A stretch of 64,000 nt of DNA. Origin: a virus (Duplodnaviria; Caudoviricetes). A program made the position numbers and the translations under genes. The notes beneath the pieces are model-generated. The model saw only the letters and a program-made list of their open reading frames with translations, was not told where the DNA came from and searched no databases. The first letter of the stretch is position 1, and every line of letters starts with the position of its first letter. Shown piece by piece: positions 8,374-43,536 of this stretch. The stretch is taken from the IMG/VR virus record IMGVR_UViG_3300014204_000110; one strand, 5' to 3'.

Positions 8374-8561
8374 TGGGTATCAAGACAAAATTAGTTATTG
8401 ATCTTCCAGATGATGTTGATTATACTCAACACGTTAATAATATTAAAAATCAAATATCTAGAATTAATGGATTAGAAACTATTGTAAGTTTACAGACGAT
8501 AGATGATCCAATCAGCCTTAGTCCAACCAATATAAGAAAAGTAAGTGAAGCTAATGACTAA
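8373..8561 (+). CDS. small hypothetical protein
   Basis: 62 aa; TAATG overlap with the upstream gene and overlap with the downstream gene. Confidence 0.6.
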   Translation: MGIKTKLVIDLPDDVDYTQHVNNIKNQISRINGLETIVSLQTIDDPISLSPTNIRKVSEAND

Positions 8562-16856: not shown

Positions 16857-18110
16857 ATGGCTACACGACGATCATATATAAATATTGTTGAAGATGGAAG
16901 AACTCGATTAGAACAAAATAGTCCTGTTAATAATTTTAATCAACAAGGAATTTCAAAAGCATTTCTAGATATTCTTGGTGTTGAAGTTGAAAAACAATAT
17001 GATAATCTAGAGTATGTTTATAGGGCAATTGATCCAACAAAAGCTACTGGAAGTGATCTAGAAAAAATAGGATATCTTGTTGGAGAATATAGGACTGAAG
17101 CAGTTACACCATCTGATTATTCTACTACAAACTTTTATTTTTATATCGATCCTAAAATTAATATGAGTTTATCTTCAATGATAAAACGAAGTTATACATA
17201 TGAAGAAAGAAATACTCTTGTTTCTAATGGTTTTTTAACTAATGACATATATGGAGAACCACAAAATTTAATTATACCAATTGATACAGTTGTTCAAAAT
17301 TTTGATGGAACAATATCTTATACAACTATTAATTCTGTTATTTTAAATAATACTGATAGTTATGTTGGAATAATTGCTACAAATACTGGACCAAGTTATA
17401 ATGTAGAAACTAATACACTTATTGCTCATACACTTCATCAAATTCCAGAACTTAGAAAAATTTCACAATATATTAAATGTTCAAATAGATTTCCAATTCA
17501 AAATGGAAAATATTCAATAAATGATGATGAATTAAGATATAAAATTTCTACTTCTAGAAGTTCAATTAGATCAAATGAATTATCAATACGTAGATCAGCA
17601 TTAAGTGTTCCTGGTGTTAGAGATATTCTTTTTGAAAAAAATAAATATGGTGCTGGTACTGTTAATATAATTATTGATGGAGTATCACCACTAATTTCTC
17701 AAGGGCTTATAGATGCTGTTAAAGAAAAAGTTCAACAAGAACAATCATATGGTGATACAATATATGTTAATAGACCAGAATATATTGGAATAGAATTAGA
17801 TATTGGTATTGTAATTACTTTAGGTACTATAGATGAATTAAGTGTTAAACAACTTGTTAAAAGTTCAATTATTCAATATATTAATGATCTTCCTATTGGT
17901 GGAGAAATTATTTGGAATAGAATAATAGATGTTGTAATGGATGTTTCTGGAGTTGAAGATATTGTACCAAGAACATTTAAATTAGGTGAGTACGATATTT
18001 TCCATAAACTTATTAAAAATCAAATAATACTACAATTTCAAAATCAAAAAGCCAGTCTAACACAAAAGTTTTTTTGTGATTATGGACTTTGTAATATATG
18101 TATAGTATAA
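16857..18110 (+). CDS. baseplate J-like wedge protein
   Basis: ATGSDLEKIG, GPSYNVETNTL, DDELRYKI, ALSVPGVRD, GAGTVNIII, YINDLPIGGEI..VSGVED; GGAG RBS. Confidence 0.9.
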   Translation: MATRRSYINIVEDGRTRLEQNSPVNNFNQQGISKAFLDILGVEVEKQYDNLEYVYRAIDPTKATGSDLEKIGYLVGEYRTEAVTPSDYSTTNFYFYIDPKINMSLSSMIKRSYTYEERNTLVSNGFLTNDIYGEPQNLIIPIDTVVQNFDGTISYTTINSVILNNTDSYVGIIATNTGPSYNVETNTLIAHTLHQIPELRKISQYIKCSNRFPIQNGKYSINDDELRYKISTSRSSIRSNELSIRRSALSVPGVRDILFEKNKYGAGTVNIIIDGVSPLISQGLIDAVKEKVQQEQSYGDTIYVNRPEYIGIELDIGIVITLGTIDELSVKQLVKSSIIQYINDLPIGGEIIWNRIIDVVMDVSGVEDIVPRTFKLGEYDIFHKLIKNQIILQFQNQKASLTQKFFCDYGLCNICIV

Positions 18111-18111
18111 T

Positions 18112-20385
18112 ATGAATACAAAATTACCATCTCAAGCTAAATCAACTGAACGATTACTTAGATCTGTTTTACCAGAACATTTTAAAATGGTATCTGATAA
18201 AAATTCTAATGGATATAAGTATGTTAATCTTTTATATGGTATTGAATGTGATAATATTTTAGATTCTATACGGGAAGTTTATAATGAATCTTTTATTACT
18301 TCTTTTGATTTAAGTAAAGATTATGAATTATATGAAGCTAATTTATCTGGAGTTCCAACTACTTCTTATTTAAATTCAAGTGGATTATTTCCAATTAAAA
18401 TTACAAATGAATATGAATTTTATAATGGTGATCCAACTAGAATCATTCCTAATGGAACTTTAGAACTTCCAATGTATTATTTATCTTATACTGGAGTTCT
18501 TCAAGCAAGTGGTGAATTTAAAAATGGTTTTGATATAGGATTTAATGAACCATGTTGGTCTCAAATATCTGGAATAATTGGATTAGAATATATAAGAAAA
18601 GATATGAGAGGTTCTGGATATTTAATTATAACTTCAGATATAGATCAAACTTCTGGATTTTTTAATAATATGTATCCAGTGTTTTCAATTGATGTTGGAA
18701 ATAATTTAAAAACAAGTGGAGATTTTGTAAATACTTATGGAATATTTAATGGGGTTAAGGAACAAAACTTTTCTGGAAGTTTAACTAATGAAATATTATA
18801 TCCAATAGATTCAAAAACACTTTTAGAAAGATATCCATTATATAGAGAAGTTCTAGATGATAGTGGAATTTTACGTACTATAGATCATTATGAACCGTAT
18901 CATGGATGGACTAAAAATGCTAATGGTCAAATTATTGCTGTAGTTGATTATTCTGGTGAATATTATTATGATAATTCAGGTGAAAAAATATATTATAAGA
19001 CATCATATAATAATCCATATGGATATAATAATTATACAAAAGCTTATTTAGATTTAAAATATATACCAATAAGTGGAACACTTAAAGTTTATGATATAGA
19101 TATTTTAGATACAAGTGGTAATGCAACTGAAATACCTTATAGTGGCAAAAACTTATATTATTATAAATCTCCTAAAATGTTTTTAGGTAATACTTCTGGT
19201 GAATTAGATGCTCAATTTGATCCAATATACCTTGGTTACGAATCAATTGTTCCAAGTGGAATGGGTTTTAGTTCAAATATGGAAGGTTCTGGATGTTCAT
19301 TATATAAAGTTACTACTTGGAATTATTTACATGAAAGTGGTAAATTAGATGAAGGTTCATTAAGTTATATAGATGGTACTGAAAATATTACAAATAGAAT
19401 TAGTTTATCTGGATATCATAGTAGATATATGGTTGAGTATAAATATAAAATATATGATAATGATAGATATGTATCTTCTTTAAATTCAAATGGTTCTATT
19501 TCTTTTCATACACCAAGTCCAATAATTACTAATTATAAAAATAATGATTATGTTTTAATTGATTATGACTTTACTAAAAATCCTGATTATAAAAATGAAA
19601 ATTCTAAAATAATAACTTTTGATGGATTAAAATATAGACCAGGATGTAGAATTAATAAAATATCTTTTGATATTCCATTTCTTTTTAATGAAAATGAAAT
19701 TACTGAAAATTTATATATTAATACAAATAAAGAATATGCAGGATATTCTAATGAATTTATTCCACAATTTAATGATTTAAGATATTATGTTTTAAATTGT
19801 TTATTTTCATCGGACGTGTCTGGAAATTTAATTGAAACTGATTTAACTAATACTGGAAACGATTTGACTTATAGTGGTAATAATAATATATTTAAGATTA
19901 ATTATAATACATTTTTTGGTAAAAAAATTATAAATACTGGTAATGAGTCTTATTTTTATAAAGACAATTATAGTTTTCTTAATATAAATACTTTTTTTAA
20001 ATTTGATTTTAGATTAAATACAATACAAAATGGAAGATTATTAGAAATCTATGATGTTATTACTTCTACATATATATTTTTAGATATAGATCAATCTGGT
20101 AGATTAATTATATATTCTAATAATAAAATATTTTATTCAACAAGTAATTTAATATCAAATTTTAATTATAAAAGTTTAATATTAAAATATTCTCCAGATG
20201 AGTTTTCATCAAGTATACCAACTTTTAAAATATATTTTAAAGATAGTGAGCAACTTGGTTATTCAATTATAAATTTAAGTGAAAGTTCTGATAGTAATAT
20301 TAATTTAATTGATCATACATCATTAAAAGTTTTTAAAAATATGAGTATTGATATTGGTGGTTTTTCTGTATTTTATGAGGATTAA
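18112..20385 (+). CDS. baseplate wedge/peripheral tail protein, Ser-Gly rich
   Basis: Follows J. The N-terminus LLRSVLPEHF..SNGYKYVNLLYG resembles wedge gpI-like N-termini; the C-terminus is beta-rich and lectin-like. Confidence 0.5.
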   Translation: MNTKLPSQAKSTERLLRSVLPEHFKMVSDKNSNGYKYVNLLYGIECDNILDSIREVYNESFITSFDLSKDYELYEANLSGVPTTSYLNSSGLFPIKITNEYEFYNGDPTRIIPNGTLELPMYYLSYTGVLQASGEFKNGFDIGFNEPCWSQISGIIGLEYIRKDMRGSGYLIITSDIDQTSGFFNNMYPVFSIDVGNNLKTSGDFVNTYGIFNGVKEQNFSGSLTNEILYPIDSKTLLERYPLYREVLDDSGILRTIDHYEPYHGWTKNANGQIIAVVDYSGEYYYDNSGEKIYYKTSYNNPYGYNNYTKAYLDLKYIPISGTLKVYDIDILDTSGNATEIPYSGKNLYYYKSPKMFLGNTSGELDAQFDPIYLGYESIVPSGMGFSSNMEGSGCSLYKVTTWNYLHESGKLDEGSLSYIDGTENITNRISLSGYHSRYMVEYKYKIYDNDRYVSSLNSNGSISFHTPSPIITNYKNNDYVLIDYDFTKNPDYKNENSKIITFDGLKYRPGCRINKISFDIPFLFNENEITENLYINTNKEYAGYSNEFIPQFNDLRYYVLNCLFSSDVSGNLIETDLTNTGNDLTYSGNNNIFKINYNTFFGKKIINTGNESYFYKDNYSFLNINTFFKFDFRLNTIQNGRLLEIYDVITSTYIFLDIDQSGRLIIYSNNKIFYSTSNLISNFNYKSLILKYSPDEFSSSIPTFKIYFKDSEQLGYSIINLSESSDSNINLIDHTSLKVFKNMSIDIGGFSVFYED

Positions 20386-27286: not shown

Positions 27287-28066
27287 ATGAATCAAATTAC
27301 TTTAAAATCATCATTCTTTTCATTTTTATCTTATGATGAAAAAAATGTACAAGATAAGATACATAAAACTTTTAAAGATCATAAAACTCATTTTATAAAA
27401 AATGAAGATGGAAGTCACTTTTTTGGTCTTATTATTGATAATATTAATAAAATAGCATATCTTGTTAATCGTGGAACTGATGGTGATAATAATCTTGGAA
27501 ATTTACATTCATGGTTATATGATGCTAATCTTTTTACTGGTAGTGATGGAATGCATAATGGTTTTCAAAAATTAGCTAATAAAGTATTTGATCAATTTAA
27601 AGATATACTTGTTAATTATAAAACAATTGTTTGTTGTGGTCATTCTCAAGGATCTGGTGTTGCTCAAATACTTGCTAAATTATGTTGTGAAAATCTTTCT
27701 AAAGATAAGAAAATTAAATTAATAGTATTTGCTGCGCCACCATCTGGAAATTATACTTTTAAAGAAATTGTTCAAAAATTTATAGATAATGGACAACTTG
27801 AAGTAGAACGATATATTATGCCAGGTGATCCAATAGCATCTAAAAAACTTAGAAATAAAAAAAGTATATTACTTAATGGAGAAGATGTTGGCCCAGATAG
27901 TTGGCTTCCAGATATCATACAGACTAAACTTGGTCCATTTGAAGCAATAAATCATTCATGTAAAGTCTATGTTGTTGGACTTATATTAGAACTTCTTAAA
28001 AGTGATATTGAAACTTTAGAAGACTTAAATTTTCTAGGATGTTTGTTTAGAAATTGTGTTAATTAA
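27287..28066 (+). CDS. class 3 lipase / alpha-beta hydrolase
   Basis: RGT lid motif, HNGF, nucleophile elbow GHSQG (27638-27652), FAAP, GDPIA (Asp), NHS (His); AGGAG RBS. Confidence 0.85.
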   Translation: MNQITLKSSFFSFLSYDEKNVQDKIHKTFKDHKTHFIKNEDGSHFFGLIIDNINKIAYLVNRGTDGDNNLGNLHSWLYDANLFTGSDGMHNGFQKLANKVFDQFKDILVNYKTIVCCGHSQGSGVAQILAKLCCENLSKDKKIKLIVFAAPPSGNYTFKEIVQKFIDNGQLEVERYIMPGDPIASKKLRNKKSILLNGEDVGPDSWLPDIIQTKLGPFEAINHSCKVYVVGLILELLKSDIETLEDLNFLGCLFRNCVN

Positions 28067-28093
28067 CTATACTAAAACTGATTGGAGAATTAT

Positions 28094-28378
28094 ATGAACG
28101 TATTAAATAATATTTTATCACATCAAGAAATTATAATTGCAATTATTGGGGTTTTGACACCAATAATATATCGGGCATTACAAAAATTAGTACAATATCT
28201 TCCTTCTGAATATAAAAAAATAGGAAATAAAATTAAACCTACAACTATTACAATAATACTTCGATTTTTATTTGGTAAAACTGCTACTTTTTATAAATGT
28301 TTTGTTAAAAAAGATCCAAAAGCTACTGAAGAATTATTAAAAATAGCTAATCAATATATAAATAATAAACTTAAATAA
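28094..28378 (+). CDS. small membrane protein, holin-like
   Basis: Hydrophobic IIIAIIGVLTPIIY segment and basic C-terminus; ATG 28094 follows GGAG. Confidence 0.4.
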   Translation: MNVLNNILSHQEIIIAIIGVLTPIIYRALQKLVQYLPSEYKKIGNKIKPTTITIILRFLFGKTATFYKCFVKKDPKATEELLKIANQYINNKLK

Positions 28379-28391
28379 TTGGAAAATTTAA

Positions 28392-29303
28392 ATGTCAGAA
28401 TTATCAATTTTAATTCCAGCAAGAAATGAAATGTGGTTACAAAATACTATTGATGATATTCTTAAAAATATAGAATTAGATACAGAAATTATAGTTTGTT
28501 TAGATGGATATTGGCCTTATATTCCAATAAAAGATGATAAACGAGTAAAAATAATACATTATACAGAATCAGTTGGTCAAAGAGCAGCTACAAATGATGC
28601 AGCTAAATTATCTAGATCTAAATATATAATGAAATGTGATGCTCATTGTGCTTTTGATAAAGGATTTGATAAAAAACTATTAAGTACAATAGAAGATAAT
28701 TGGACAGTTATTCCAAGAATGTATAATCTTCATGTGTTTAATTGGTTATGTAAAAAATGTAATAATGAAACTTATCAAGGACCTACTCCAACAAAATGTG
28801 ATAAATGTGAAGGTGCTGAGTTTGAACGTAAATTAATTTGGAAACCAAGATTAAATCGCAAAACTGATTTTACAAGATTCGACAGTGATCTTCATTTTCA
28901 ATATTGGTCTGATTATGAAAAACGTCCTGAAGCTAAAGGTGATATTGTTGATGTGATGTCAAATCTCGGGGCTTGTTGGTTGATGTCTCGTAAACGATAC
29001 TGGTCATTAGATGGTCTTGATGAAGAACATGGTTCCTGGGGTCAGATGGGTACTGAGATAAGTTGTAAGAGTTGGTTATCTGGAGGAAGACAAGTAGTTA
29101 ACAAAACAACATGGTTTTCTCATCTATTTAGAACCCAAGGTGGAGATTTTGGATTTCCTTACCAAATATCAGATAAACAAGTCCAGAATGCCAGAAAAAG
29201 ATCAAGAGAATTGTGGTTAGAAAATAAGTGGCCTAAAGCTATTAAAAAATTAGATTGGCTGATTAATAAATTTTCACCAGTACCAACATGGGAAATAAAA
29301 TGA
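28392..29303 (+). CDS. GT-A glycosyltransferase resembling polypeptide N-acetylgalactosaminyltransferase (GT27/GT2-like) with inserted Zn ribbon
   Basis: SILIPARNE, DAHC (DxH, 28638-28649), GACWLMSRKRYWSLDGLDE, WGQMGTEISCKSWLSGG, SHLFR. Confidence 0.8.
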   Translation: MSELSILIPARNEMWLQNTIDDILKNIELDTEIIVCLDGYWPYIPIKDDKRVKIIHYTESVGQRAATNDAAKLSRSKYIMKCDAHCAFDKGFDKKLLSTIEDNWTVIPRMYNLHVFNWLCKKCNNETYQGPTPTKCDKCEGAEFERKLIWKPRLNRKTDFTRFDSDLHFQYWSDYEKRPEAKGDIVDVMSNLGACWLMSRKRYWSLDGLDEEHGSWGQMGTEISCKSWLSGGRQVVNKTTWFSHLFRTQGGDFGFPYQISDKQVQNARKRSRELWLENKWPKAIKKLDWLINKFSPVPTWEIK

Positions 29304-29495: not shown

Positions 29496-30203
29496 ATGGG
29501 AAACTTAATGAAATATCCAGATAATTTAACCATAATATATCTTACGAACAACTTGATGCCTGAAGGTTGGATGAAATTTCAATTAGATGCTTTTGCTAAA
29601 GCATCTGAAGGATATAAAGTTATTTCTGTGTCTAGAGTTCCAATGAATTTAGGTTATAATATTATTCAAACAGAACCATCTTCTTATTGGAATATTTATT
29701 ACCAATTAATGAAAGCAGCTAAATTAGCAGATACAGATTTTATAGCAACTGCTGAAGATGACACGTTATATACACATCAACATTATCATGAATTTAGACC
29801 AAATGTTGATGAAATAGCTTATGATCGATCAAGATGGTCTTTATTTACATGGGATAAAGACCCAATATATTGTTTAAGAAATAGAGTATGTAATTGTTCA
29901 ATGATTTCACCAAAAAAGTTATTTATCGATGCAATTGAAGAACGCATAGAAAAATATCCTAATGGACTTCCAAACAGTGAAGTGGGAGAAGTAGGTAGAG
30001 AAAGAATAGAGTTACGTCTTAAAGTTAAACGTAATAAATTAGTAGAATTTTATTGTACTAATTCAATTGTACAACTTAATCATACTAATGGTGAAGATAT
30101 AAGACAAAAAGAAAAATGGAAATCACATGGTCAAATTAAAGCATATGATATTCCTACTTGGGGTAAAGCAAAAAATATAGTGGAGATTTATAATGGACGT
30201 TAG
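29496..30203 (+). CDS. GT-A fold glycosyltransferase (GT2-like)
   Basis: TIIYLT N-terminal strand; DTDFIATAEDDTLY acidic motif; cluster context. Start may be 29508. Confidence 0.6.
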   Translation: MGNLMKYPDNLTIIYLTNNLMPEGWMKFQLDAFAKASEGYKVISVSRVPMNLGYNIIQTEPSSYWNIYYQLMKAAKLADTDFIATAEDDTLYTHQHYHEFRPNVDEIAYDRSRWSLFTWDKDPIYCLRNRVCNCSMISPKKLFIDAIEERIEKYPNGLPNSEVGEVGRERIELRLKVKRNKLVEFYCTNSIVQLNHTNGEDIRQKEKWKSHGQIKAYDIPTWGKAKNIVEIYNGR

Positions 30204-30777
30204 AAAAGCAATTTTAGAAAAGTTTAGATTTAGAGGAACTAGAGATAATATGCCAATGTCCTCACCTAAAGGAACAAGAGAAACATTAGCAGAATTACTT
30301 GAGGAACTTGATTTTAATAAAGGAATCGAGGTAGGATCTAGAAAAGGTCACTATGCAATGGTATTATGTCAGAAAAATCCTAAGTTAGAATTAACTTGTA
30401 TTGATCCTTGGAAAGCTTATAGTCATTTAACACAAGAAAAACAAGATGAAATATTTGAAGAATGGAAAAAGAATATGCAACCATTTAATGCTAAATTTAT
30501 AAGAAAATATAGTATGGATGCATTGATTGATTTTGAAGATAGATCTCTTGATTTTGCTTTTATAGATGGTAATCATGAATTTGATTATGCTGCACCTGAT
30601 ATTATTTTTTGGGCAAAAAAAGTAAAAGTTGGTGGAATTTTTGCAGTACATGATTATTATAATTTTTATAGATCTGGTGTTATTAAAGCAGTAGATGCAT
30701 ATACACATTGTAATAGAATTAAAGAATGGTATTGTACTCAAGAAAAAACACCAATAGCATTTTGGATTAATATATGA
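30193..30777 (+). CDS. class I SAM-dependent methyltransferase (Methyltransf_24-like)
   Basis: GIEVGSRKG, CIDPW, LDFAFIDGNHEFD, KVKVGGIFAVHDY. Confidence 0.85.
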   Translation: MDVRKAILEKFRFRGTRDNMPMSSPKGTRETLAELLEELDFNKGIEVGSRKGHYAMVLCQKNPKLELTCIDPWKAYSHLTQEKQDEIFEEWKKNMQPFNAKFIRKYSMDALIDFEDRSLDFAFIDGNHEFDYAAPDIIFWAKKVKVGGIFAVHDYYNFYRSGVIKAVDAYTHCNRIKEWYCTQEKTPIAFWINI

Positions 30778-31283
30778 GAAATGAAGATATAAGATTGCGT
30801 AATAGTTTAAATGTTGGAAGTCATCTTCCAGTTTTAATGAAATTATTTTCTATTACTGATGGACCAATAGTTGAATATGGTGGAGGAATAAATTCTACTA
30901 TATTTTTTCATTGGGCGTGTTTTTCAACAGAAAGAAAATTGCTGACTCTAGAGAGTGATTGGATAAATCATAAACTATTAAGAAAATTTAGAACCGATTG
31001 GCATCAATGTCAATTTGTTAGACATTGGAATGATGCAATTGTTGAAGATAATTATTCACTAGTTTTTATAGATCATAACCCAGCTGCTCAAAGGCATGTG
31101 GATGTTAAAAAACATATAAATGCTGAATATGTTGTACTTCATGATTCTGAACCAGATAAAAATAATATTTATTTTTATGATCGAATTTATCCTTTATTTA
31201 AATATAAACTTGATTATACAAAATCTTGGCCTAATACAACAATATTAAGCAATGTTCATAGATTAAATAAATTGAAAATATGA
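30774..31283 (+). CDS. SAM-dependent methyltransferase-like protein
   Basis: IVEYGGGINST, LTLES, LVFIDH, VVLHDSE. Confidence 0.7.
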   Translation: MRNEDIRLRNSLNVGSHLPVLMKLFSITDGPIVEYGGGINSTIFFHWACFSTERKLLTLESDWINHKLLRKFRTDWHQCQFVRHWNDAIVEDNYSLVFIDHNPAAQRHVDVKKHINAEYVVLHDSEPDKNNIYFYDRIYPLFKYKLDYTKSWPNTTILSNVHRLNKLKI

Positions 31284-31867
31284 TTCCGAAAGTTATCAAT
31301 CAAGTTTGGCTTTATCCACCTATAGATAATAAATATCTTAATTGGTCTAAAACGTTTGATATATCTGGATTTAAACATAAAATTTGGGAATTACAAGATT
31401 GTTTAAATTTATTAAGTCCTGAAACAGTAAGTATTATAGAAGATCCAAATGTGCATTGGATATATAAGGCTACTTTTGCAAGATATGATATTTTAAGACT
31501 ATTTGGAGGTTTTTATGCTGATATGGATATGGAATGTATAAAGTCTTTCGAAGATTTATGCAATCAAGATTTTATATGCGTAAAACAAAATGATAGAGAA
31601 ATATCAGATGCTTTTATAGGATGTTCTAAAAATAATAGTATTATAGATAGAGTTTATCAAAAAGCTTTATATAATTTTAATAATCTTAAAAATAAAAGTT
31701 CCAAACGTTGGATTCTAGAAACTGCAAGCGTATTTATGATAACAAAAGAATTAACAGATCAAATTCCATTAGAACAAGAATATTTTTGTCCTATCTGGAA
31801 AGGTCGAGGAAAAGTTACAGATAAAACATATTGTATTCACCATTATACAAGGTCATGGAAAAGATGA
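31280..31867 (+). CDS. GT32 (OCH1/Gly_transf_sug, DXD) glycosyltransferase
   Basis: MIPKVINQVW, RYDILRLFGGFYADMDMEC, YCIHHYTRSW. Confidence 0.85.
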   Translation: MIPKVINQVWLYPPIDNKYLNWSKTFDISGFKHKIWELQDCLNLLSPETVSIIEDPNVHWIYKATFARYDILRLFGGFYADMDMECIKSFEDLCNQDFICVKQNDREISDAFIGCSKNNSIIDRVYQKALYNFNNLKNKSSKRWILETASVFMITKELTDQIPLEQEYFCPIWKGRGKVTDKTYCIHHYTRSWKR

Positions 31868-32565
31868 TAAAACTATCAATAATTCATCCTGTACTTAATA
31901 GTCACGAAGTTGTAAGACGACAATTGCTTCATTATGAAAAACAAAATTTACCTGATGAAGTAGAGATTATTATAGTAGATGATGATAGCGATCCTCCATT
32001 AATTAATAATGGATTAAAAAACTTATCCATTTATTATACCCATGACCCAAGACCTTGGACTTGGCCTATTGCAAGAAATCTTGGAGCGAAGATGGCTAAA
32101 GGTGAATTACTATTCTTTGCTGACATTGATTATATAATCCCAAGAGAAGCAGTTTTAATGGGATTAGGACTTAAAGAAGATAGAATGAATGTGCGTAGAG
32201 AATTTGGAGTTCTCGATGAAAATGGTAATTTAACACAAGACTTAGATGTATTAAGACAATATGGATTACTCGAAGGCCGCATACAAAGTAAAGGTGTGAA
32301 TGTATCTGCCCATACAAATACATTTATAATGAAAAAAGACGTATTTTTTAAAATGAATGGTTATAGAACAGATCGAATAGGTAAACCTTACCCACAAAGA
32401 GAAGATGGTGATTTTGATCGAGATTGGTTGAAACGATATGAAAAAGGTGAAGTAAACAGAACTCATGATAGGCCAACTGTTTATATGTTTCCAAACGGTA
32501 AGTTCTGTGGAGATTTAGATTATAATCCTTTTGGACTTTTTCATACAACGAGTAGGAAGAATTAA
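31864..32565 (+). CDS. GT2 glycosyltransferase with GT7-C-like C-terminus
   Basis: LSIIHPV, EIIIVDDDS, ARNLGA, LFFADID, FFKMNGY, REDGDF. Start 31864 inferred from ATGA coupling. Confidence 0.8.
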   Translation: MIKLSIIHPVLNSHEVVRRQLLHYEKQNLPDEVEIIIVDDDSDPPLINNGLKNLSIYYTHDPRPWTWPIARNLGAKMAKGELLFFADIDYIIPREAVLMGLGLKEDRMNVRREFGVLDENGNLTQDLDVLRQYGLLEGRIQSKGVNVSAHTNTFIMKKDVFFKMNGYRTDRIGKPYPQREDGDFDRDWLKRYEKGEVNRTHDRPTVYMFPNGKFCGDLDYNPFGLFHTTSRKN

Positions 32566-34497
32566 ATGTTTAAAAATTTAATTAGAATAATTATATTAAT
32601 AACTTTAAGTAGTTTTAATATTAATGCCACCAGATACTATGTGGACAATGCTGCCGCTAATGATGCAGGAACTGGTGCAGTAGGCAGTCCTAAAAAATAT
32701 ATTCCATCTGGCATTGCTTTATTATCGGCTTCTGGTGGAGATACTGTTGTTGTTAAAGATGGGACGTATTCAGGTACAAGTAATCTAATTAATACATTCG
32801 TAAATGGTGTATCTGGAGCGTATAATACTTTAATGGCCGAAAATAGTGGAGGAGTTATATCTACTGCGGGACTTCAATTTGTTAGGTCTACTTCTCCATA
32901 TAGTTTTCAACAGTATATAATAATAAAAGGAATTAAATTTAGTAATTCTGCACCTAAACAAGTACAAGGTCAACGTATAAAATTCTTTGAATGTGCTTTT
33001 CAAGGTGGTGCAGCAACTGACAATACCTCTACTGTAGAAGTTGGCACCGATAACTACAATGATACTAGGTATATTTTGTTTGAAGATTGTTGGGCTTATG
33101 GTAGTGGAGGAAGATATAATTTTGAAATTTTCAATTCGGATACAATAGTAATGCGAAGAGTTGTAATTCGACATGATGGTGGCTGGACTGATTCGAAAGG
33201 TGATCCTGAAGCTGGGATTGCAAACTATAATAGTAGTTGTTGTGAGTATCAAAACTGTATAGTTATAGACTGCGATCAGACATATCACACTTGGGGCAGG
33301 GCAGTATATACTATTTTTAATACATATTCAGAAGGAGCTGGTGGTATTCCACATCCAACTAATAATGTAAATTATAGAGGTTGTATAATTTTGAATGTGG
33401 ATGGTTCTGGATTTGAAAGCGATGGTGATGGAGCATCTCCACATCCAGCTACTGATATTATATCAAATTACTATGATGTAGTATGTTGGAATTCGTTTGC
33501 AGGAGGTTTTTCTGGAGGTTCTACTGGTGGAACTACAATACTTACATTAAATCGATGTACTTTCGGTGGGTCAGATAATTCAGGGGGTTGGACATCAGGT
33601 TTTGATAAGTGGGATAATGGATCTTTTACAATCACTAATACAATCTGTACAGGATATGATGGTATAGACTTCTCTTCTGAATGTGCAGCAAGTTATTGTA
33701 ACACATATAATAACTCTGATAATGGGACATGTTCTAATTGTCAAACATATAGTCCTTTCACTAACGGTTTACTATATCCTATTAGAATTGAAGCAGGTAG
33801 TAATTTATTATCAGCTGGTCAATCTGGAGGACAAATTGGTGCTACTATAGTTAAAAGAATGGGAACATCTGGAACCTTATGGGGAGAGAGTGGATATAAT
33901 ACTTTATCTGATGTAGATTTATGGCCGTGGCCCAATGAAGCAAGAATAAAAGCAGATATGGCTGCGGTAAGTGCAAGAGGGTTTTGTACAGGTAATTCAA
34001 TGAATGGACAAGCACAATCACTGACTAAATACATTTGGGAATATGCTGGAAATGAAGCTCCTTCATTCGGTTCTACTCCTGTAAAAGTAACTTGGGTAGG
34101 GGGTACTTCCACCAATGCTGCTTTAGCTGCTAATTACTCTCCAGCTCAAGCGCCTACCTCCATCGATACCATCTTACTTAATACTGGATCTGTTGATTTT
34201 GTAGTAGGGTCTGTTATTAATGTTGCGTATGTAAGTCAAGTCACCGGCTATACTGGAACTTTTACCGTAAATGATACATTGAAAACTAATTATTTAGGGC
34301 TTGGCACATGTGCGGCAAGTTTTAATGCGCCTTGTGTTATAAAAGATTCTGTTGTTTATGCAACTGCTTCTACCCCCACTGGAAATGCGGGAAGCAAGAT
34401 AATATCTGTTGCTGGTAGTACGTTGAGAGTTAGGTTGAATGGTAATGTAGGAACACCGAGAGTAGTGATGACTTCAGGTAGTAAAATTAAATGGTAG
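32566..34497 (+). CDS. signal-peptide-bearing parallel beta-helix protein (pectin-lyase-like) with conserved C-terminal module
   Basis: MFKNLIRIIILITLSSFNINA|TRYYVD; GDTVVVKDGTY; paralogue of 35192..37087. Confidence 0.7.
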   Translation: MFKNLIRIIILITLSSFNINATRYYVDNAAANDAGTGAVGSPKKYIPSGIALLSASGGDTVVVKDGTYSGTSNLINTFVNGVSGAYNTLMAENSGGVISTAGLQFVRSTSPYSFQQYIIIKGIKFSNSAPKQVQGQRIKFFECAFQGGAATDNTSTVEVGTDNYNDTRYILFEDCWAYGSGGRYNFEIFNSDTIVMRRVVIRHDGGWTDSKGDPEAGIANYNSSCCEYQNCIVIDCDQTYHTWGRAVYTIFNTYSEGAGGIPHPTNNVNYRGCIILNVDGSGFESDGDGASPHPATDIISNYYDVVCWNSFAGGFSGGSTGGTTILTLNRCTFGGSDNSGGWTSGFDKWDNGSFTITNTICTGYDGIDFSSECAASYCNTYNNSDNGTCSNCQTYSPFTNGLLYPIRIEAGSNLLSAGQSGGQIGATIVKRMGTSGTLWGESGYNTLSDVDLWPWPNEARIKADMAAVSARGFCTGNSMNGQAQSLTKYIWEYAGNEAPSFGSTPVKVTWVGGTSTNAALAANYSPAQAPTSIDTILLNTGSVDFVVGSVINVAYVSQVTGYTGTFTVNDTLKTNYLGLGTCAASFNAPCVIKDSVVYATASTPTGNAGSKIISVAGSTLRVRLNGNVGTPRVVMTSGSKIKW

Positions 34498-34512
34498 TTA
34501 AGGAATAATATA
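34051..34512 (+). repeat. direct repeat copy 1 (about 460 bp: C-terminal module, stop and downstream RBS)
   Basis: Gap-free alignment with 36641-37102 at offset 2590; mostly synonymous differences. Confidence 0.95.
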
Positions 34513-35195
34513 TGGCACATGAAATAGCAGTATCAATTGAAACTTTACCTTCAACTATCTCAATCGATAAAAAAGGTAAACGGCATATTACGCACAGAAG
34601 AAGTGGGGACATTGTTGCTCCAATATCAGACTTTAAAAAGGTAGAAAAATGGCTTGAGATAGTTTGTTCTTTCGGAAATCCAAAACACCCAAATCATGAG
34701 TTAATTTTTGATGGTTTAGTTAATAACTGCGATTGGAAGAAGAATAAACATGTAGATGGTGCAAAGGGTATCTGGAGTAAAGAGCTACAAGATAAATGGT
34801 TTGAAGCTGATTGTAAATCTTCTACAGAATATGATCGAATAGCTAACTTGACACGTCTATGGAATAGCGAAATCAAACAGACTATCGGTTGGATAGATCA
34901 TATGGGTAAGGAACCTAACGGTGTTGAAGATTTAGTTAATACTTGGCAATGGAGTAAACACGAAAAGTCAAACTTTTATGTAGTTGTTAATAGTGATGCA
35001 AATGAACAAGAGATGAAGGAATTATCAAATCGAGATATTAGTGACAGTACAGACGTAAGAGAAATTAGAAGGAAAAATATCGATTGGGAATCAGATTTGT
35101 TATTATCGAATAGTAAAAAAAATAATATTAAAAATAGAAATACTGTTGTACACCCCGACTTTTCTAACCCTATGTCTAAGGTTAAAATATCATGA
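34512..35195 (+). CDS. hypothetical protein (possible fibre-associated chaperone)
   Basis: 227-aa ORF with AAGGA RBS between the two beta-helix genes. Confidence 0.55.
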   Translation: MAHEIAVSIETLPSTISIDKKGKRHITHRRSGDIVAPISDFKKVEKWLEIVCSFGNPKHPNHELIFDGLVNNCDWKKNKHVDGAKGIWSKELQDKWFEADCKSSTEYDRIANLTRLWNSEIKQTIGWIDHMGKEPNGVEDLVNTWQWSKHEKSNFYVVVNSDANEQEMKELSNRDISDSTDVREIRRKNIDWESDLLLSNSKKNNIKNRNTVVHPDFSNPMSKVKIS

Positions 35196-37087
35196 AAATT
35201 TTACAAACTTTTTTCCTGTTGCTGTTCTTTCTGGTGTCGATTGCGGATGCTGCGATACGGTACATCTCCCCCACCGGAAGCAACGCTGCTGCCGGAACAA
35301 CTGGTGCTCCATGGAGGACGTTTGAATACGCATTCGGTGAGATTTCTGGTGGAGACACCTTGTATTTAAAGCCCGGCACATACTCAGAGGCTGCGGGGAC
35401 CGGATACATATCGTGGGAAGGTACCGGATCTGGTCAACCACCATCCGGGGTATCGCGCACGCACATGACGCTCGTTGCGGCCACGGTAGAGGATTCAACC
35501 TTTGTTACCGGAGTATTGTTTTTAGGGAGATCCGACAGAAAAGACACCTGTATTTACGTAAGGGGAATAACGTTTAACGGGGGCGTGCATCTTTACAATA
35601 ACCGGCATTGTGTGGTTAAAAATTGCGGTGGTTATAATACATTGGAGAACGGTGGGGTAGTTTTTGAGATATCTCCTGACGGAGATCACCAAATGGGATG
35701 TACCAACAATTTGATCGAAGACTGTTGGGCGTGGGGGCAAAATAGGGGAATTGCATTAGATTACATAGCGGATAGTAATACGTGGCGCAGGGTTGTAATA
35801 CGCGGCGATGGATGCAACAGTGCCGCGTGTGTAGGGTCTGGAAACCCTAACGTTGGTATATCGTGTTACGCATCAAAGAGAGTTACTTTTCAAAATTTAA
35901 TAATTGTCGATAGAGTGCTTGGCGGTGGTGAGCCGTATGCAAATTTTGCAACAGCGGAGCACGCACAGGGTAATCTTGGACCGCTAAAAGTCCAGGGGTG
36001 CATATCTTTAAACGGCCCGGATGAGGGGTACTATTTCGAGGCTGAAAACGCAAACGACAGTACATTTATAATAGAGAATTCCATTGCGTGGGACATGGCC
36101 GACGACGGATTTAGTTTACAAAATCATGCGTTCCCGCATACGATAATCAGGCGATGCACCTCCGGTTATATAGGTGGCGACAACGCTTTTCGAACCGTTG
36201 AGGTTACAAGTGCGCTACTGGATAATTTACTTTCAATAAACGCGACAACGTACTCGTTTAGCTGTAATATCCAACCTCAGTACGTGTGTGCTTATAATGG
36301 CGGGACATACAATCAAACCACTCCGGCGCATCCGATAACGACAGACCCTGGGATGCGATACATTTGCAGGATAGAATCTAATAGCACTTGTCACGGAACC
36401 GGGTCGAATGGATCTGATATCGGGGCAAATATTTTATACCGATACGGTCTGGACGGTACATTTTTTGGGGAACCTGGGTATGACAGCCTAACCACGATAT
36501 CGTTGTGGCCGTACCCAAATGAGGCCAGAATACGAAGGGATTTTCTACGGTACAATAACGAATCTGACGAATCGCGAGGATTCTGTGATGATGCTGTTGC
36601 GGCGTCATTGACGGAGTACGTTTGGGAATACCAATATAGGAATGAGGCTCCTTCTTTTGGTGGATCTCCTGTTAAAATAACCTGGGTAGGTGGATCTTCG
36701 ACCAATGCTGCTTTAGCTGCTAATTACTCTCCAGCTCAAGCGCCTACTTCAATTGATACAATATTACTTAATACTGGATCTGTTGATTTTGTAGTAGGGT
36801 CTGTTCTTAATGTAGCGTATGTAAGTCAAGTCACTGGATATACTGGAATCGTTACCATTAATGATACATTGAAAACTAATTATTTAGGACTTGGAACATG
36901 TGTAGCGAGTTTTAATGCTCCTTGTGTCATTCGAGATTCTGTTGTTTATGCTTCAGAATCTACACCCACTGGAAATGCAGGAAGTAAGATAATTTCTGTT
37001 TCAGGAAGTACGCTAAGAGTAAGGTTGAATGGTAATGTAGGGACACCAAGAGTAGTGATGACTTCAGGTAGTAAAATTAAATGGTAA
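35192..37087 (+). CDS. signal-peptide-bearing parallel beta-helix protein, paralogue of 32566..34497; GC-rich 5' part
   Basis: MKILQTFFLLLFFLVSIADA|AIRYIS; GDTLYLKPGTY, EDCWAWG, LWPYPNEARI; near-identical C-terminal ~148 aa. Confidence 0.7.
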   Translation: MKILQTFFLLLFFLVSIADAAIRYISPTGSNAAAGTTGAPWRTFEYAFGEISGGDTLYLKPGTYSEAAGTGYISWEGTGSGQPPSGVSRTHMTLVAATVEDSTFVTGVLFLGRSDRKDTCIYVRGITFNGGVHLYNNRHCVVKNCGGYNTLENGGVVFEISPDGDHQMGCTNNLIEDCWAWGQNRGIALDYIADSNTWRRVVIRGDGCNSAACVGSGNPNVGISCYASKRVTFQNLIIVDRVLGGGEPYANFATAEHAQGNLGPLKVQGCISLNGPDEGYYFEAENANDSTFIIENSIAWDMADDGFSLQNHAFPHTIIRRCTSGYIGGDNAFRTVEVTSALLDNLLSINATTYSFSCNIQPQYVCAYNGGTYNQTTPAHPITTDPGMRYICRIESNSTCHGTGSNGSDIGANILYRYGLDGTFFGEPGYDSLTTISLWPYPNEARIRRDFLRYNNESDESRGFCDDAVAASLTEYVWEYQYRNEAPSFGGSPVKITWVGGSSTNAALAANYSPAQAPTSIDTILLNTGSVDFVVGSVLNVAYVSQVTGYTGIVTINDTLKTNYLGLGTCVASFNAPCVIRDSVVYASESTPTGNAGSKIISVSGSTLRVRLNGNVGTPRVVMTSGSKIKW

Positions 37088-37102
37088 CTAAGGAATAATA
37101 TA
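36641..37102 (+). repeat. direct repeat copy 2
   Basis: Matches 34051-34512, including ...AGTAAAATTAAATGGTA and TAAGGAATAATATA. Confidence 0.95.
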
Positions 37103-40100
37103 ATGCCAACATATGATATAGGTACTGGACAGACCTACACTACGATATCTGCGTGGGAAACCGCCAGAGATATATCCCGGACAGAAGATGAGGTCGGCGA
37201 ATGCCTTGCCGAACTCTTTAATGAAAACGTCAACTTTACCGGAGGGACGCCAAACGGATACTGGATGAAGCTGCGTGGCAAGGCTGGAGCGAGGCACGAT
37301 GGCCGTGCTTACGAGGTCAGTAGTGTAGCCTGCGCCCGCATTTACCGCTCTGCAAATGCCACAACAGTAAACGTTGACGTCGGTGGCATAGAAATAGCAT
37401 GGCTTGACATTAAAGGTCCGGGAAACTACACCCAGGACACCATCAGCCGTGCGGGTGACTTAACTGCCGATGGCGATTTCAGGCTACATCATTGTATCAT
37501 ACATAACAACTTTGCAAATAATAACGGCTCTCAGGTAGCCATCACGATGTCGGATGATTCGGAAACGACGAATTACCGAATATATCGAAACCTCGTCTAT
37601 GGCTTCGGTGGTGCTGGCATATTACCGTATCAGATTGGTGGTACTACAAAATACGTCTATGCGTACCATAATACTTGTGCTTTATGTGGGCAAGTATTAG
37701 GTGAAACTGATGCTGGTGGTATTCAGAACAGTATGACAGAAAGTACCGCCTATTTTGAAAATAATGTCTCAGTTGGTCAACTAAATGTAGATTATTATGG
37801 AACAAATTACGGTAGCTGGGACAACAATGCTTCTGAGGATACTACAGGAGATTCTACTGGTGGTCCTGCTCATAATGTAGACCTTAGAAGTCTTAATCCA
37901 AGTGGTTTATTTCAGAACTATACAAGCACTTATGCGTCTATTGATCTACGCACAAAAGTAGATTCTGATTTAATTGGAATGGGTGATACAACTTATTCTA
38001 CTACCGATTTTCCTGAAATAGACATACCAATTACTGGTGGTGATGCTATTACAGGAACATGGGATATAGGAGCAGATCAATATGCAGAGGCTGTAAATAC
38101 CGCAAGTAATTCTCCTTCTACTTCACCATCAAGTAGCGCAAGTAATAGCCCTTCTACTTCACCAAGCCCAAGTAATTCACCAAGTAATTCTTTATCTACA
38201 AGTGCTTCAAATAGTCCTTCTAGTTCAGTTTCAAATTCACTAAGTAACTCACCAAGTACATCTATATCAATTAGTCCTTCTACAAGTGAGTCAAGTTCAC
38301 CATCTCCATCAAATAGTCCATCTACTTCTCCCAGTCCTGGAATTAGTGCTTCTAATTCACCAAGCACATCTTTAAGTAATTCTTTATCAGATAGCCCTTC
38401 TTCTTCGTTATCAAGTTCTATTAGTAGTAGTCCGTCTCCTTCTAATAGTGCAAGTGAATCACCTAGTACATCTTTAAGTGAAAGCCCATCAACAAGTTTA
38501 TCAAGTAGTATTAGTAATTCTTTGTCTAGTAGTCCATCTACTTCTCCAAGTAGTAGTCCACCTGAATTTAGCCTAATATCTTATTCTGATGATTATGATA
38601 ATAATGCTATTCTTTATACACAAGAATTGTTCACTGTTCAAGAAAATGATTTATTAGTTGGTGTATGTATGTGGGAAGAGAGTAGTAGGACACCAATCTT
38701 ACAAGAAAATACTTTAGCTTATAATTTTACAATGTTAGATGTTATTACAAATGCTAACAGTACAAATGTAAGATTTGGTTATCATGTTGTAACTTCTGCG
38801 GAGGCTGGAACTGGGATTAGATATAGAGCAGATTATGGTTCTATTACATCATTAGCCACAATTTCTGTTTATTTATTTAGACCAACTTCAGGTATCCCAG
38901 AAATAGAAGTGTTTGGTTCTGGAATTGGAACTGGAACATCTCCACAAACCAATAGTATATCTACAGCAGGGCCTTCTGTAATTGTAGCTGCATTAGATTG
39001 TTATGGCGGAGGAGTTAGTAATCAACAAATTAATTTAACTACTCCTGATACAATTTATACTTTAAGTTCAGATGAATCTACTTTTTATACAACTGAAACT
39101 TCTCTTTTATCCAATATTTATGCATCTGCTACATGCTCTAATGATGCGTGGGCAATGGGAATTATTGCTTTTAAAGTTTCTTCGGGAGGAAGTAGCGCCT
39201 CAAGTTCACCATCTACTAGTGAATCAAGTTCACCGAGTCCTAGTACATCCGTATCAAACAGTGTATCAAGTAGTTTATCAAATAGTGCCAGTGAATCTCC
39301 ATCAAGTTCATTAAGTAATTCATTATCAGATAGCCCGAGTAGTAGCGAATCCTCTTCTATTTCAAATAGTCCATCACCAAGTTTATCACCTTCTAATAGT
39401 GCATCTGATTCTCCAAGTAATAGCGAATCAAGTTCTCCTTCTTCGAGTATAAGTTCAAGTATATCAAGCAGTGTTAGTAATTCACCATCAACATCTCCTA
39501 GTCCTTCAAATTCACCAAGTTCATCTATAAGTAGTTCTATTTCTAACAGTGCTAGTACAAGTCCTAGTTATAGTTTATCTAATAGTCCAAGTACCTCTAT
39601 TTCTAATTCAAGTAGTAATAGTCCATCACCTAGTAATTCATTATCAAGTTCAGTATCATCAAGTCTTTCAACAAGTCCTTCTACTTCATTAAGCAATAGT
39701 ATTTCTAATTCACTTTCTTCGAGTATATCTTCGTCTCCAAGTAATAGTCCTAGTCCAAGCAATAGTCCATCTATTTCAGAATCGAATAGTCCTTCTACGT
39801 CTATTAGTAATAGTGCTTCAAGTTCCCCTTCGAGTTCACCTAGTCCAAGCAATTCTTTAAGCAATAGTCCATCTTTAAGTCCAAGTATTTCGTTGAGTAA
39901 TTCACCATCTACTTCGCCTTCTCCATCAAGTTCTGTTTCTAATTCACCAAGTCCAGGAAATAGTGCTAGTAACAGTCCATCTAGTTCAGAATCTAATTCA
40001 CCAAGTAATTCTTTAAGTACATCTATATCAAATAGTGCTTCAAATTCACCATCGCCAAGTAACAGTCCTTCTACCTCGTTGAGTAGTTCTATTTCTAATA

Positions 40101-42102: not shown

Positions 42103-43536
42103 ATGGCTGTTTTACAAATAACTAATGGCGCTTGTACTGGTAGAGGTTTTGCTGATACGTCAGTTAGTGGATATATGTCAAAATTTTATGATTGGATTAC
42201 TAAAATACCAGCAAGTGGCGGTCCTGGATGGAATATACTTTTAGATAAGTCTATATATCCTACAACTAAAACTATGACTTCTATGATAAGTGGAGTTATA
42301 ATATCAAGTGGACATGGATTTTATTCAAATGAAATAATTCGATATTATACTTCTGGTACAATTATAAATGGTCTTACTAATAATACTGATTATTATGTTA
42401 CGAAAGTAAATGATAATAGTTTTAAATTAAGTACAAATCATTTTAATGTTGGTATTGGAACATATATTAATATAACAAATTCTGGTGTTGGATCTCAAAC
42501 TTTCACTTTAAGTGGTCCATATATTATAATTTCTGATGAACCATCTCCTCAAATTAATCAAGTTTGTAAATTTATGAAAGTTGGATATGGAATTCCACAA
42601 GGAAGTTATATTCAAGTTCAATATTTTATAGGATGGAATAATACAAGTAAAATACTTGGAAGTATTTATGGTGGTTATATTATAGAAACTGTAGATGATG
42701 GTAATTTTGCATATGATTTTCGTGGTGGTGATGAATGTATGATTTTACAATCACGTATTGGTACTACTTGGGATTCTACTGGAATGGATACTTGGACTGG
42801 AGATAGTACTTTTCTAGAAGGTCTTGATCATTCAGGAACTTTAAGGAGTGTTGGTGTGCCTGGTACTAATTCAGTAGCATACTTAAGATCTGGAGAATCT
42901 AGTAATATAACTAGTGGTGAATATTATTATTTATATGATTATTCTCAACTTCCTTATGTTCGTTTAGAATATTCTAAATGTACTTATGTTGATGCTGGAG
43001 CTGATAGTGTTACTTTTTCTGGATTAGTTCATACATTTCCATCAGGATCTGTTATTGGATCATATCCTCATAGATATATGTGTTTTGGTAATAATATTTA
43101 TGATAATAATTCATTTTGTTATTCGACATATATACCATATACAATACCTTATACATCTCATCCTAATTGGTATTATTGTAGTAATTTAGGATATGGATCT
43201 ATTAGTTCAAGTTGTAGATCATCTTATGAAGATGGTATTTTAAATTCTTCATCTCCTGATGAAAAAGGTAGACATCTTATGGAAAAATGGAATATATTAG
43301 AATGGGCATCAAATCAAAGTAATTATACCACTCATAATTATAATGGTATGAATAGATTTTATGGATCTGCTAATAATTTATATTTAACTAAAATTAATTC
43401 AATGGCACGTAGTCAAGATGGATTAATTTATGGTGGAAAACAGTATCTATATTTTATGTTATCTAGTGAAATTGGTGGATATGGTGGAAGTGCTAGTTAT
43501 GCTATTTTATATCCAGATAGTGTATCAAGTGAATAA
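42103..43536 (+). CDS. virion structural protein (tail/baseplate-associated)
   Basis: Contains the small beta domain GHGFYSNEIIRY..INGLTNNTDYYVTKVNDNSFKLS seen in phage tail proteins; AGGAG RBS. Confidence 0.55.
   Translation: MAVLQITNGACTGRGFADTSVSGYMSKFYDWITKIPASGGPGWNILLDKSIYPTTKTMTSMISGVIISSGHGFYSNEIIRYYTSGTIINGLTNNTDYYVTKVNDNSFKLSTNHFNVGIGTYINITNSGVGSQTFTLSGPYIIISDEPSPQINQVCKFMKVGYGIPQGSYIQVQYFIGWNNTSKILGSIYGGYIIETVDDGNFAYDFRGGDECMILQSRIGTTWDSTGMDTWTGDSTFLEGLDHSGTLRSVGVPGTNSVAYLRSGESSNITSGEYYYLYDYSQLPYVRLEYSKCTYVDAGADSVTFSGLVHTFPSGSVIGSYPHRYMCFGNNIYDNNSFCYSTYIPYTIPYTSHPNWYYCSNLGYGSISSSCRSSYEDGILNSSSPDEKGRHLMEKWNILEWASNQSNYTTHNYNGMNRFYGSANNLYLTKINSMARSQDGLIYGGKQYLYFMLSSEIGGYGGSASYAILYPDSVSSE

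Follow-up and report, generated by a model that had tools for sequence, protein, structure and literature searches.

A phage glycosyltransferase family closest to the GT27 polypeptide GalNAc-transferases, and its genomic coupling to serine-repeat proteins

The 64,000-nucleotide stretch of viral DNA analyzed here, referred to below as the window, comes from the IMG/VR record IMGVR_UViG_3300014204_000110 (Duplodnaviria; Caudoviricetes) and encodes a glycosyltransferase (GT) of 303 amino acids (aa), P0001. The family to which P0001 belongs is the closest known relative, in both sequence and structure, of the retaining polypeptide N-acetylhexosamine (HexNAc) transferases (family GT27 and, by motif, GT60). 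Its genes stand in a conserved cassette and are coupled, in searches run in both directions, to proteins carrying long S-x-S-x tracts (SxSx proteins). On balance we lean, with modest confidence, toward reading the cassette as a cytoplasmic, metal-dependent O-glycosylation system for SxSx virion or surface proteins, with P0001 as the probable initiator, other GTs extending the glycan, and methyltransferases capping it.

Relation of P0001 to the GT27 catalytic domain

A first-pass annotation, made by a model from the letters of the DNA, had proposed that P0001 carries the motif series of the eukaryotic polypeptide N-acetylgalactosamine (GalNAc) transferases (GalNAc-Ts). The open reading frame (ORF) is real and intact, and all six of the motifs named were found where they had been placed, colinear with the GalNAc-T motifs in HMMER alignments. 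The features of the gene are as follows:

28392-29303, plus strand: P0001, GT27-like GT-A glycosyltransferase, 303 aa, ATG start, single-domain, soluble, class 1 of the family
aa 5-15: SILIPARNEMW
aa 81-86: KCDAHC
28638-28646, plus strand: DxH motif D83-A-H85, predicted metal ligands, aligned to LDAHC of GalNAc-T1
28749-28808, plus strand: CxxC-12-CxxC zinc-ribbon insert (C120, C123, C136, C139), aa 120-139
aa 162-172: RFDSDLHFQYW
aa 193-211: GACWLMSRKRYWSLDGLDE
29037-29087, plus strand: WGQMGTEISCKSWLSGG, aa 216-232, partial Gal/GalNAc-T motif in which E222, W228, and G231 are invariant
29118-29132, plus strand: SHLFR, aa 243-247, with the invariant C-terminal His H244, aligned to GHVFR

In the same alignments, the GalNAc-T counterparts were TSIIIPFHNEGW, LDAHCE, GGLFAVDRKWFWELGGYD, WGGEQYEISFKVWMCGG, and GHIYR or GHVFR. 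The loop that follows SHLFR, FRTQGGDFGFPY, aligned with the FRK..PY.FP segment of the GalNAc-Ts, which we take to be their flexible lid.

Colinearity with the GT27 catalytic domain was borne out by sequence, profile, and structure comparisons alike. Searched on its own against the sequences of the Protein Data Bank (PDB), P0001 matched GT27 enzymes in 14 of 15 cases, including the top seven, with GalNAc-T10 the best (E 1.7e-4); the sole other match, GalT1 (5hea), covered the N-terminal half only. A profile of 33 family homologs (alignment A1) matched mouse GalNAc-T1 over profile positions 4-272, the entire catalytic domain, at E 4.7e-19, followed by 14 more GT27 entries. The best structures outside GT27 (GalT1 and the chondroitin polymerase K4CP) matched this profile in the N-terminal nucleotide-binding half only, at E 2e-9 or worse. 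Judged from sequence, the agreement of motif and profile with GT27 is beyond chance. In Pfam, P0001 matched PF00535 (Glycos_transf_2; 51.4 bits against a cut-off of 23.3) over residues 5-112 only, a label that neither discriminates nor counts against kinship with GT27, because 96-100% of members carry PF00535 in the GALNT clusters of eukaryotes listed in the ESM Atlas.

Residues D83, H85, E222, W228, G231, and H244 are invariant in A1, and D38, D210, and E211 are kept in at least 90% of its sequences. The first-pass annotation had pointed to DxH in place of DxD, and indeed D83 and H85 are constant across the 33 homologs and align to LDAHC; the canonical DxD of GT2 enzymes is D-A-H in P0001, with the His invariant. 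By alignment, D83, H85, and H244 would correspond to the Mn2+ triad of GalNAc-T1, and D210 and E222 to acidic residues of the Gal/GalNAc-T motif, whose GalNAc-T1 counterparts we take to be mutationally important. Among GT-A families, only GT27 and GT60 have exchanged DxD for DxH, and in GT27 the C-terminal His coordinates the metal (Taujale et al., PMC7185993).

The absence of both a transmembrane anchor and a ricin lectin domain, also proposed in the first pass, was supported as well. The top 19-residue Kyte-Doolittle mean was 0.75, and hydropathy revealed no signal or transmembrane segment in P0001, which should therefore be cytoplasmic. No Ricin_B_lectin match was found, the whole 303 aa aligned to residues 115-427 of mouse GalNAc-T1 (mGalNAc-T1), and the chain ends at residue 303, directly after the catalytic domain. 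While the annotation was right about the motifs, it had missed the Met at position 218, the zinc-ribbon insert, and the wide spread of the family among prokaryotes and phages. The zinc ribbon is present in only part of the A1 rows and is absent from both GT27 and a second, class-2 paralog described below; two family members match the rubredoxin-like PF21349.

The AlphaFold2 model of P0001, computed with A1, had a predicted local distance difference test score (pLDDT) of 95.1 and a predicted template-modeling score (pTM) of 0.92, with strand beta1 beginning at residue 4. In a Foldseek search of the PDB, the top 50 matches to this model were all GT27 enzymes (E ~1e-16 to 1e-14). The superposition on GALNT1 that the first pass had called for was run on mGalNAc-T1, the closest structure in VIA, which aligned the model exhaustively with 48,161 representative chains (Z 27.2, root-mean-square deviation 2.5 A, 262 residues, 21% identity). 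Toxoplasma GalNAc-T3 (TgGalNAc-T3) scored Z 25.4, and the next GT-A folds were WrtF (18.3), K4CP (18.2), and SpsA (17.6). P0001 thus does not group with ordinary GT2 enzymes, there being a structural gap of ~8 Z units between GT27 and the other GT-A folds.

With GT27 (GALNT1/2/4/7/10/12, Drosophila PGANT9, and Toxoplasma GalNAc-T3), P0001 shares the GT-A domain, to which GT27 provides the closest structures, NE(x)W after beta1, DxH, and a GG/GA donor pocket, as well as W-G-x-x-x-x-E-I-S-x-K/R-x-W-x-x-GG and a C-terminal His followed by the FR..PY loop. Both are also linked to Ser-rich, repetitive proteins, as acceptors or, for P0001, as candidate acceptors. P0001 differs in being prokaryotic or viral and predicted to be cytoplasmic, and it has neither the full WGGENxE motif nor the type II topology (anchor and stem) and ricin-type lectin domain of GT27. 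Given ~20% identity, Met for the first Glu of that motif, the zinc ribbon, and the lack of an anchor or lectin domain, the P0001 family is a sister family of GT27 and not a strict member of it.

A conserved cassette and its coupling to SxSx proteins

We compared all proteins of the window with the ORFs of (i) 83 loci carrying a P0001 homolog and (ii) 80 genomic loci. Besides P0001, for which a homolog was present in 83/83 loci, the shared genes form a compact cassette; the counts below give the loci with a homolog, first among the 83 and then, where a second figure follows, among the 80 genomic loci:

29496-30203, plus strand: p235, divergent GT-A / nucleoside diphosphate (NDP)-sugar-transferase fold; 63/83 and 57/80
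30193-30777, plus strand: Methyltransf_24 S-adenosylmethionine (SAM)-dependent methyltransferase, sugar O-methyltransferase type (Pfam E 1.9e-16); 60/83 and 64/80
30774-31283, plus strand: p169, probable second SAM methyltransferase, with an ELGTG motif; 20/83 and 32/80
31280-31867, plus strand: GT32-like glycosyltransferase (Gly_transf_sug, DXD; Pfam E 1.6e-8); 1/83
31831-32565, plus strand: ordinary GT2 glycosyltransferase (Pfam E 3.4e-11); 8/83 and 17/80

No homolog of a structural or other non-cassette gene of the window was found in either set. As only the cassette genes are shared across otherwise unrelated genomes, they make up a conserved, mobile, self-contained module.

The product of p235 contains a conserved E87-D88-D89 motif (alignment A2), and its AlphaFold2 model (pLDDT 91.5) gave VIA Z scores of 10-13 to GT-A enzymes and nucleotidyltransferases, with no single nearest family. 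Its profile found nothing meaningful among PDB sequences, and p235 is therefore assigned at the level of fold only. For p169, the profile (alignment A3) yielded a weak match to the SAM O-methyltransferase 3r3h (E 0.058), and ELGTG resembles a SAM-binding motif.

In most of the homologous loci, p235 forms the C-terminal part of a fusion with the GT27-like domain. The usual gene order is an SxSx gene, a second GT27-like paralog (260-310 aa), Methyltransf_24, copies of p235 and p169, the GT27-like::p235 fusion (530-600 aa), and one or more further SxSx genes. The second paralog (class 2) is without the zinc ribbon and retains DxH, the C-terminal His, and QExxE. Other fusions join the GT27-like domain to a Methyltransf_24/CmcI domain (P0122 and P0127). 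Relative to this arrangement, the window holds a reduced cassette: a single, unfused class-1 GT27-like gene, p235, two methyltransferases, and the GT32-like and GT2 genes, with no class-2 paralog. We considered whether P0001 and p235 might be a recently split fusion; the two share a reading frame but are separated by many stop codons, and the idea was rejected.

The window also encodes one strongly serine-rich protein:

37103-42085, plus strand: Ser-repeat protein, 1660 aa, 35% Ser; its globular domains are separated by S-x-S-x tracts hundreds of residues long

No other window ORF of at least 150 aa reaches 30% Ser over any 100 residues, whereas this one peaks at 65%. Pfam scans of its four globular segments returned no family. 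We regard the product as a candidate acceptor substrate and probably a virion fiber.

The association of such proteins with the GT was examined in both directions. In the forward direction, an ORF was scored as Ser-rich if it was at least 150 aa long and contained a 100-aa stretch with 35% Ser or more; random IMG/VR loci of similar GC content (972 kb), picked by an arbitrary 14-mer, served as the control:

Viral loci with the GT: Ser-rich ORF in 64/80 loci; 103/1416 ORFs of at least 150 aa
Genomic loci with the GT: Ser-rich ORF in 47/80 loci; 59/1295 ORFs of at least 150 aa
Random IMG/VR loci: Ser-rich ORF in 0/114 loci; 0/703 ORFs of at least 150 aa

The enrichment over random viral loci was pronounced (Fisher p 1.7e-36 by locus), and the Ser-rich ORFs were all on the same strand as the GT. 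Where full 10-kb flanks were available, an SxSx ORF was present in 49 of 52 loci, mostly downstream and at a median distance of 1.5 kb from the GT domain. Pro (34%), Ala (18%), and Val (13%) predominate at the x positions of the tracts; because they contain in-frame globular domains, the SxSx ORFs are real coding frames.

In the reverse direction, IMG/VR was searched with a 110-aa domain that is conserved at the N-terminus of one family of SxSx proteins (alignment A4), yielding 78 loci. An SxSx tail was found in 76 of these, the other two being cut by contig ends, and a GT27-like gene was present in every locus that had at least 2 kb of downstream sequence (44/44). One IMG/VR contig of ~41 kb, L296, shows the order terminase large subunit, portal-sized gene, major head protein (phrog_267, E 8e-15), SxSx protein, and GT cassette, the last including a UDP-glucose-dehydrogenase-like gene. 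In this segment (4068-11306 of L296), the place directly after the major head protein gene is taken by a family of proteins of ~300 aa with the 110-aa N-terminal domain and an SxSx tail, which has 132 relatives in IMG/VR. As the slot right after the major head protein gene usually holds head-decoration genes, this SxSx family looks like a candidate glycosylated head-decoration protein.

The cassette was also found, together with three SxSx ORFs, on a complete Woesebacteria chromosome (L115, CP066693.1), which shows that the system also occurs outside phages. The flanks of this locus (1885-6656 and 16904-19176) encode Polysacc_synt_2, UDP-GlcNAc 2-epimerase, and Polysacc_synt_C/epimerase proteins (FnlA/B/C-like), along with a carbamoyltransferase, TatC, and a ComM-like protein. 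The FnlA/B/C-like trio would be typical of UDP-2-acetamido-6-deoxy-hexose synthesis, and the neighborhood hints at an N-acetyl-hexosamine-type donor. A TatC gene also follows a 2372-aa SxSx ORF in another locus, L149.

Proposed function and alternatives

The very strong two-way genomic link to SxSx proteins lends independent support to the reading of P0001 as a protein O-glycosyltransferase, and P0001 would, as the first pass had suggested, be a soluble enzyme of the cytoplasm. In the mechanism that we propose, D83 and H85 of the DxH motif, together with H244, would bind Mn2+ and a UDP-sugar, probably UDP-HexNAc, and the loop that follows H244 would cover the donor in the manner that we assume for the GalNAc-T lid. 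Working in the host cytoplasm, P0001 would add the first sugar, presumably with retention as in GT27, to Ser in the extended S-x-S-x tracts of proteins encoded beside the cassette, in this case the 37103-42085 product. The GT-A-like p235, the GT32-like enzyme, and the GT2 enzyme would then lengthen the glycan and the two methyltransferases cap it, the end product being a heavily O-glycosylated, mucin-like virion fiber.

Several observations weigh against this scheme, or at least against the place of P0001 at its start. Identity to GT27 is 17-21%, and by template-modeling score the Bacillota GT2/Glyco_transf_7C proteins (0.75-0.77) are about as near to P0001 as the eukaryotic GALNTs (0.79). In the P0001 class, Met218 replaces the first Glu of WGGENxE, a residue that is presumably needed in GalNAc-T1 (in P0001 the motif reads WGQMGTE, its second Glu being the invariant E222). 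The SxSx gene of the window lies 7.8 kb downstream of P0001 and is not adjacent to it, and gene neighborhood amounts to a functional link that does not reveal the acceptor atom. Further, most loci hold the second GT27-like paralog, which has both Glu of QExxE and often adjoins the SxSx gene, and which could be the true initiator.

P0001 might accordingly elongate an existing glycan on SxSx proteins, with initiation left to the second paralog elsewhere and, in the window, to p235, the GT2 enzyme, or a host enzyme. The replacement of the first motif Glu by Met agrees with such a role, as does the usual fusion of P0001-type domains to p235, which recalls bifunctional elongating enzymes. We nonetheless consider an elongating P0001 unlikely, though the most serious of the alternatives: P0001 is the only GT27-type enzyme of the window, SxSx genes directly follow P0001-class genes in many loci (e.g., L001, L045, L046, and L089), and the nearest solved relatives of P0001 are all peptide-acceptor enzymes.

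It is distinctly improbable that P0001 is instead a transferase for a polysaccharide, teichoic acid, or lipid-linked glycan, making a host-surface or capsule-like polymer, and that its proximity to SxSx genes reflects a shared neighborhood of surface genes. Pfam does give P0001 the generic GT2 label only, sources name it a cell-wall biosynthesis glycosyltransferase, weak N-terminal matches to the NCBIfam models PgaC, TuaG, and NodC were obtained, and the Woesebacteria locus lies among polysaccharide-type sugar genes. However, the NCBIfam scores are far under their cut-offs, polymerizing GT2 folds score far below GT27 against the P0001 model, P0001 has no transmembrane segment, and no flippase or polymerase was recognized among the cluster genes of the window scanned with Pfam or PHROGs. 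A coupling to SxSx proteins that runs in both directions across otherwise unrelated phages and cells is, moreover, hard to attribute to neighborhood alone. This alternative fits the data poorly, and so does the glycosylation of phage DNA bases or of a small molecule. DNA-modifying GTs of phages are well known and offer a familiar precedent, and PHROGs files phage GTs under moron, auxiliary metabolic gene and host takeover, but a role of this kind is hardly to be expected of a cassette that also lies between housekeeping genes on chromosomes of the candidate phyla radiation (CPR), in which Pfam or PHROG scans of cluster genes brought no base-hydroxymethylase to light, whose P0001 differs in fold from the known DNA glucosyltransferases, and whose coupling to SxSx proteins would be left unexplained.

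Returning to P0001 as the probable initiator of SxSx glycosylation, we can set the system beside others already described. Dictyostelium Gnt1, the GT60 enzyme that transfers N-acetylglucosamine (GlcNAc) to the hydroxyproline of Skp1, is soluble and cytoplasmic. Like P0001, the GT60 polypeptide alpha-GlcNAc-transferases carry DxH (PMC7185993) and have no lectin domain (PMC8724618), and the family is reported in prokaryotes and protists. The likeness lies in motif and architecture. There was no GT60 structure among the PDB search matches and no match of the GT60 model PF11397 to P0001 (E up to 1), to the 33 family members (E up to 0.1), or to 10 class-2 paralogs (E up to 0.01). The last result rules out the class-2 paralog as a GT60 enzyme in Pfam terms.

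In the glycosylation of Gram-positive serine-rich repeat proteins (SRRPs) and of staphylococcal serine-aspartate repeat (SDR) proteins, the initiators are GT-B enzymes (GT4), and accessory Sec exports the substrates, which are anchored through LPXTG. Both systems (GtfA/GtfB with several elongating GTs, and SdgA/SdgB, respectively) carry out cytoplasmic O-glycosylation of long Ser-x dipeptide repeats, with the substrate encoded beside a dedicated cluster (PMC5207161, PMC7948813, PMC3794999). The P0001 system likewise has a Ser-x repeat protein encoded beside dedicated GTs (37103-42085 in the window). It differs in its GT27-like GT-A candidate initiator, its methyltransferases, and its phage and CPR/DPANN hosts; Pfam or PHROG scans of window ORFs matched neither GtfA/GtfB nor accessory Sec, no dedicated search having been made.

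Phages, too, are known to glycosylate their virions: in mycobacteriophages, GTs encoded near the structural genes modify the capsid and the tail tube. Related mentions occur in PMC11256854 and PMC12363180. Compared with the P0001 system, the mycobacteriophage enzymes belong to different GT families and are not known to have SxSx-repeat substrates. A064R of chlorovirus PBCV-1, a eukaryotic virus, is a multidomain GT-GT-methyltransferase. Some P0001 homologs (P0122, P0127, and an ESM Atlas cluster) likewise combine GT domains with a methyltransferase, of CmcI/Methyltransf_24 type, in one polypeptide; the resemblance would lie in viral glycosylation that is independent of the host endoplasmic reticulum and Golgi.

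Mucin-type O-glycosylation, which GT27 and GT60 enzymes initiate, is usually regarded as an invention of the eukaryotic Golgi. We put forward, tentatively and at somewhat short of an even chance, the stronger proposal that the P0001 family is an unrecognized prokaryotic and viral sister of GT27/GT60 that initiates cytoplasmic mucin-type Ser-O-HexNAc, giving rise to densely glycosylated, methyl-capped SxSx 'mucin' fibers in many environmental phages and in CPR/DPANN organisms. If true, prokaryotic protein O-glycosylation would have a third route, and the proposal that the mucin-type process of eukaryotes had a cytoplasmic, prokaryote-like origin would gain a living model; the system would also bear on phage adsorption, evasion of immunity and defense, virion stability, and episymbiont attachment. 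The family offers a compact, soluble, easily expressed GT27 relative, abundant in phages and CPR/DPANN organisms and genetically tied to Ser-repeat proteins. With it, both the origin of polypeptide HexNAc-transferases and the presence of mucin-like glycoprotein coats on uncultured phages and ultra-small cells become directly testable, and a peptide O-glycosyltransferase of 303 aa could serve bacterial glyco-engineering.

Distribution of the family and setting of the window

Relatives of P0001 are numerous: at E 1e-3 or better, there are 2,281 clusters at 90% identity, many of them matching with at least 60% identity, and 1,092 representatives at 50% identity, 283 of the latter at E 1e-30 or better. 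In IMG/VR, at least 571 contigs encode a relative, as do 156 loci in species-representative genomes, for which the records listed are all metagenome-assembled genomes or assemblies of uncultured organisms. The genomic copies fall mostly in Patescibacteria/CPR (Woesebacteria, Paceibacterota, Saccharibacteria, Levybacteria, WWE3, and others) and in DPANN and other archaea, and two are on complete chromosomes of ~0.9 Mb. The family is therefore not phage-specific but also resides on CPR chromosomes, and nothing in the analysis suggests that the gene was acquired from a eukaryote. A tblastn search of 50,697 INPHARED phage records with P0001 returned no match. In the full-text literature, where subscription journals are thinly covered, we found no description of a GT27-like phage or CPR enzyme or of phage SxSx glycoproteins, and a prior description is possible.

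The ESM Atlas neighbors of P0001 are overwhelmingly viral clusters (Uroviricota), labeled GT2 only. Among the nearest by language-model features are 27 clusters that carry PF11397 (GT60-type 'GlcNAc'), of which the one listed as representative consists wholly (100%) of viral sequences (Uroviricota), so phages encode GT60-type enzymes proper as well. Some homologs contain additional domains. Of P0128 and P0134, one (699 aa) carries the intein domains Hint and LAGLIDADG after its GT domain, and the other (774 aa) carries GIY-YIG and NUMOD3 homing-endonuclease domains, indicating that selfish elements associate with the gene in some genomes. In P0201, a C-terminal extension matches PMT_2 (dolichyl-phosphate-mannose protein mannosyltransferase-type GT-C; E 6.7e-8), which would be a fusion with another class of protein-O-glycosylation enzyme.

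The window is AT-rich and appears to be a segment of a large tailed-phage genome. Nearly all of its long ORFs are on the plus strand, and a scan for tRNA genes found none in it. Baseplate and tail-fiber-like genes of the window are as follows:

16857-18110: Baseplate_J / baseplate-wedge protein (Pfam and PHROGs)
42103-43536: tail-fiber-like genes (PHROG baseplate/tail-fiber matches), just after the Ser-repeat gene

Upstream of the baseplate genes are two giant ORFs, at 1528-8373 (2281 aa) and 8545-15546 (2333 aa). Immediately before P0001, and closing the tail-fiber genes, the interval 27287-28378 encodes a class 3 lipase (Pfam Lipase_3, E 3e-13; PHROG esterase/lipase) followed by a 98-aa ORF. 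The GC content of the window is 20-29%, except at 32-42 kb (33-43%); this richer segment (32001-42000, 0.33-0.43 against 0.20-0.29 elsewhere) holds ORFs of 643, 227, and 631 aa without a Pfam match as well as the Ser-repeat gene, and the Ser codons of the repeats may account for part of the rise. Near the end of the window and outside the cassette, the minus strand encodes an additional glycosyltransferase (62268-63416; phrog_2170, E 1e-24).

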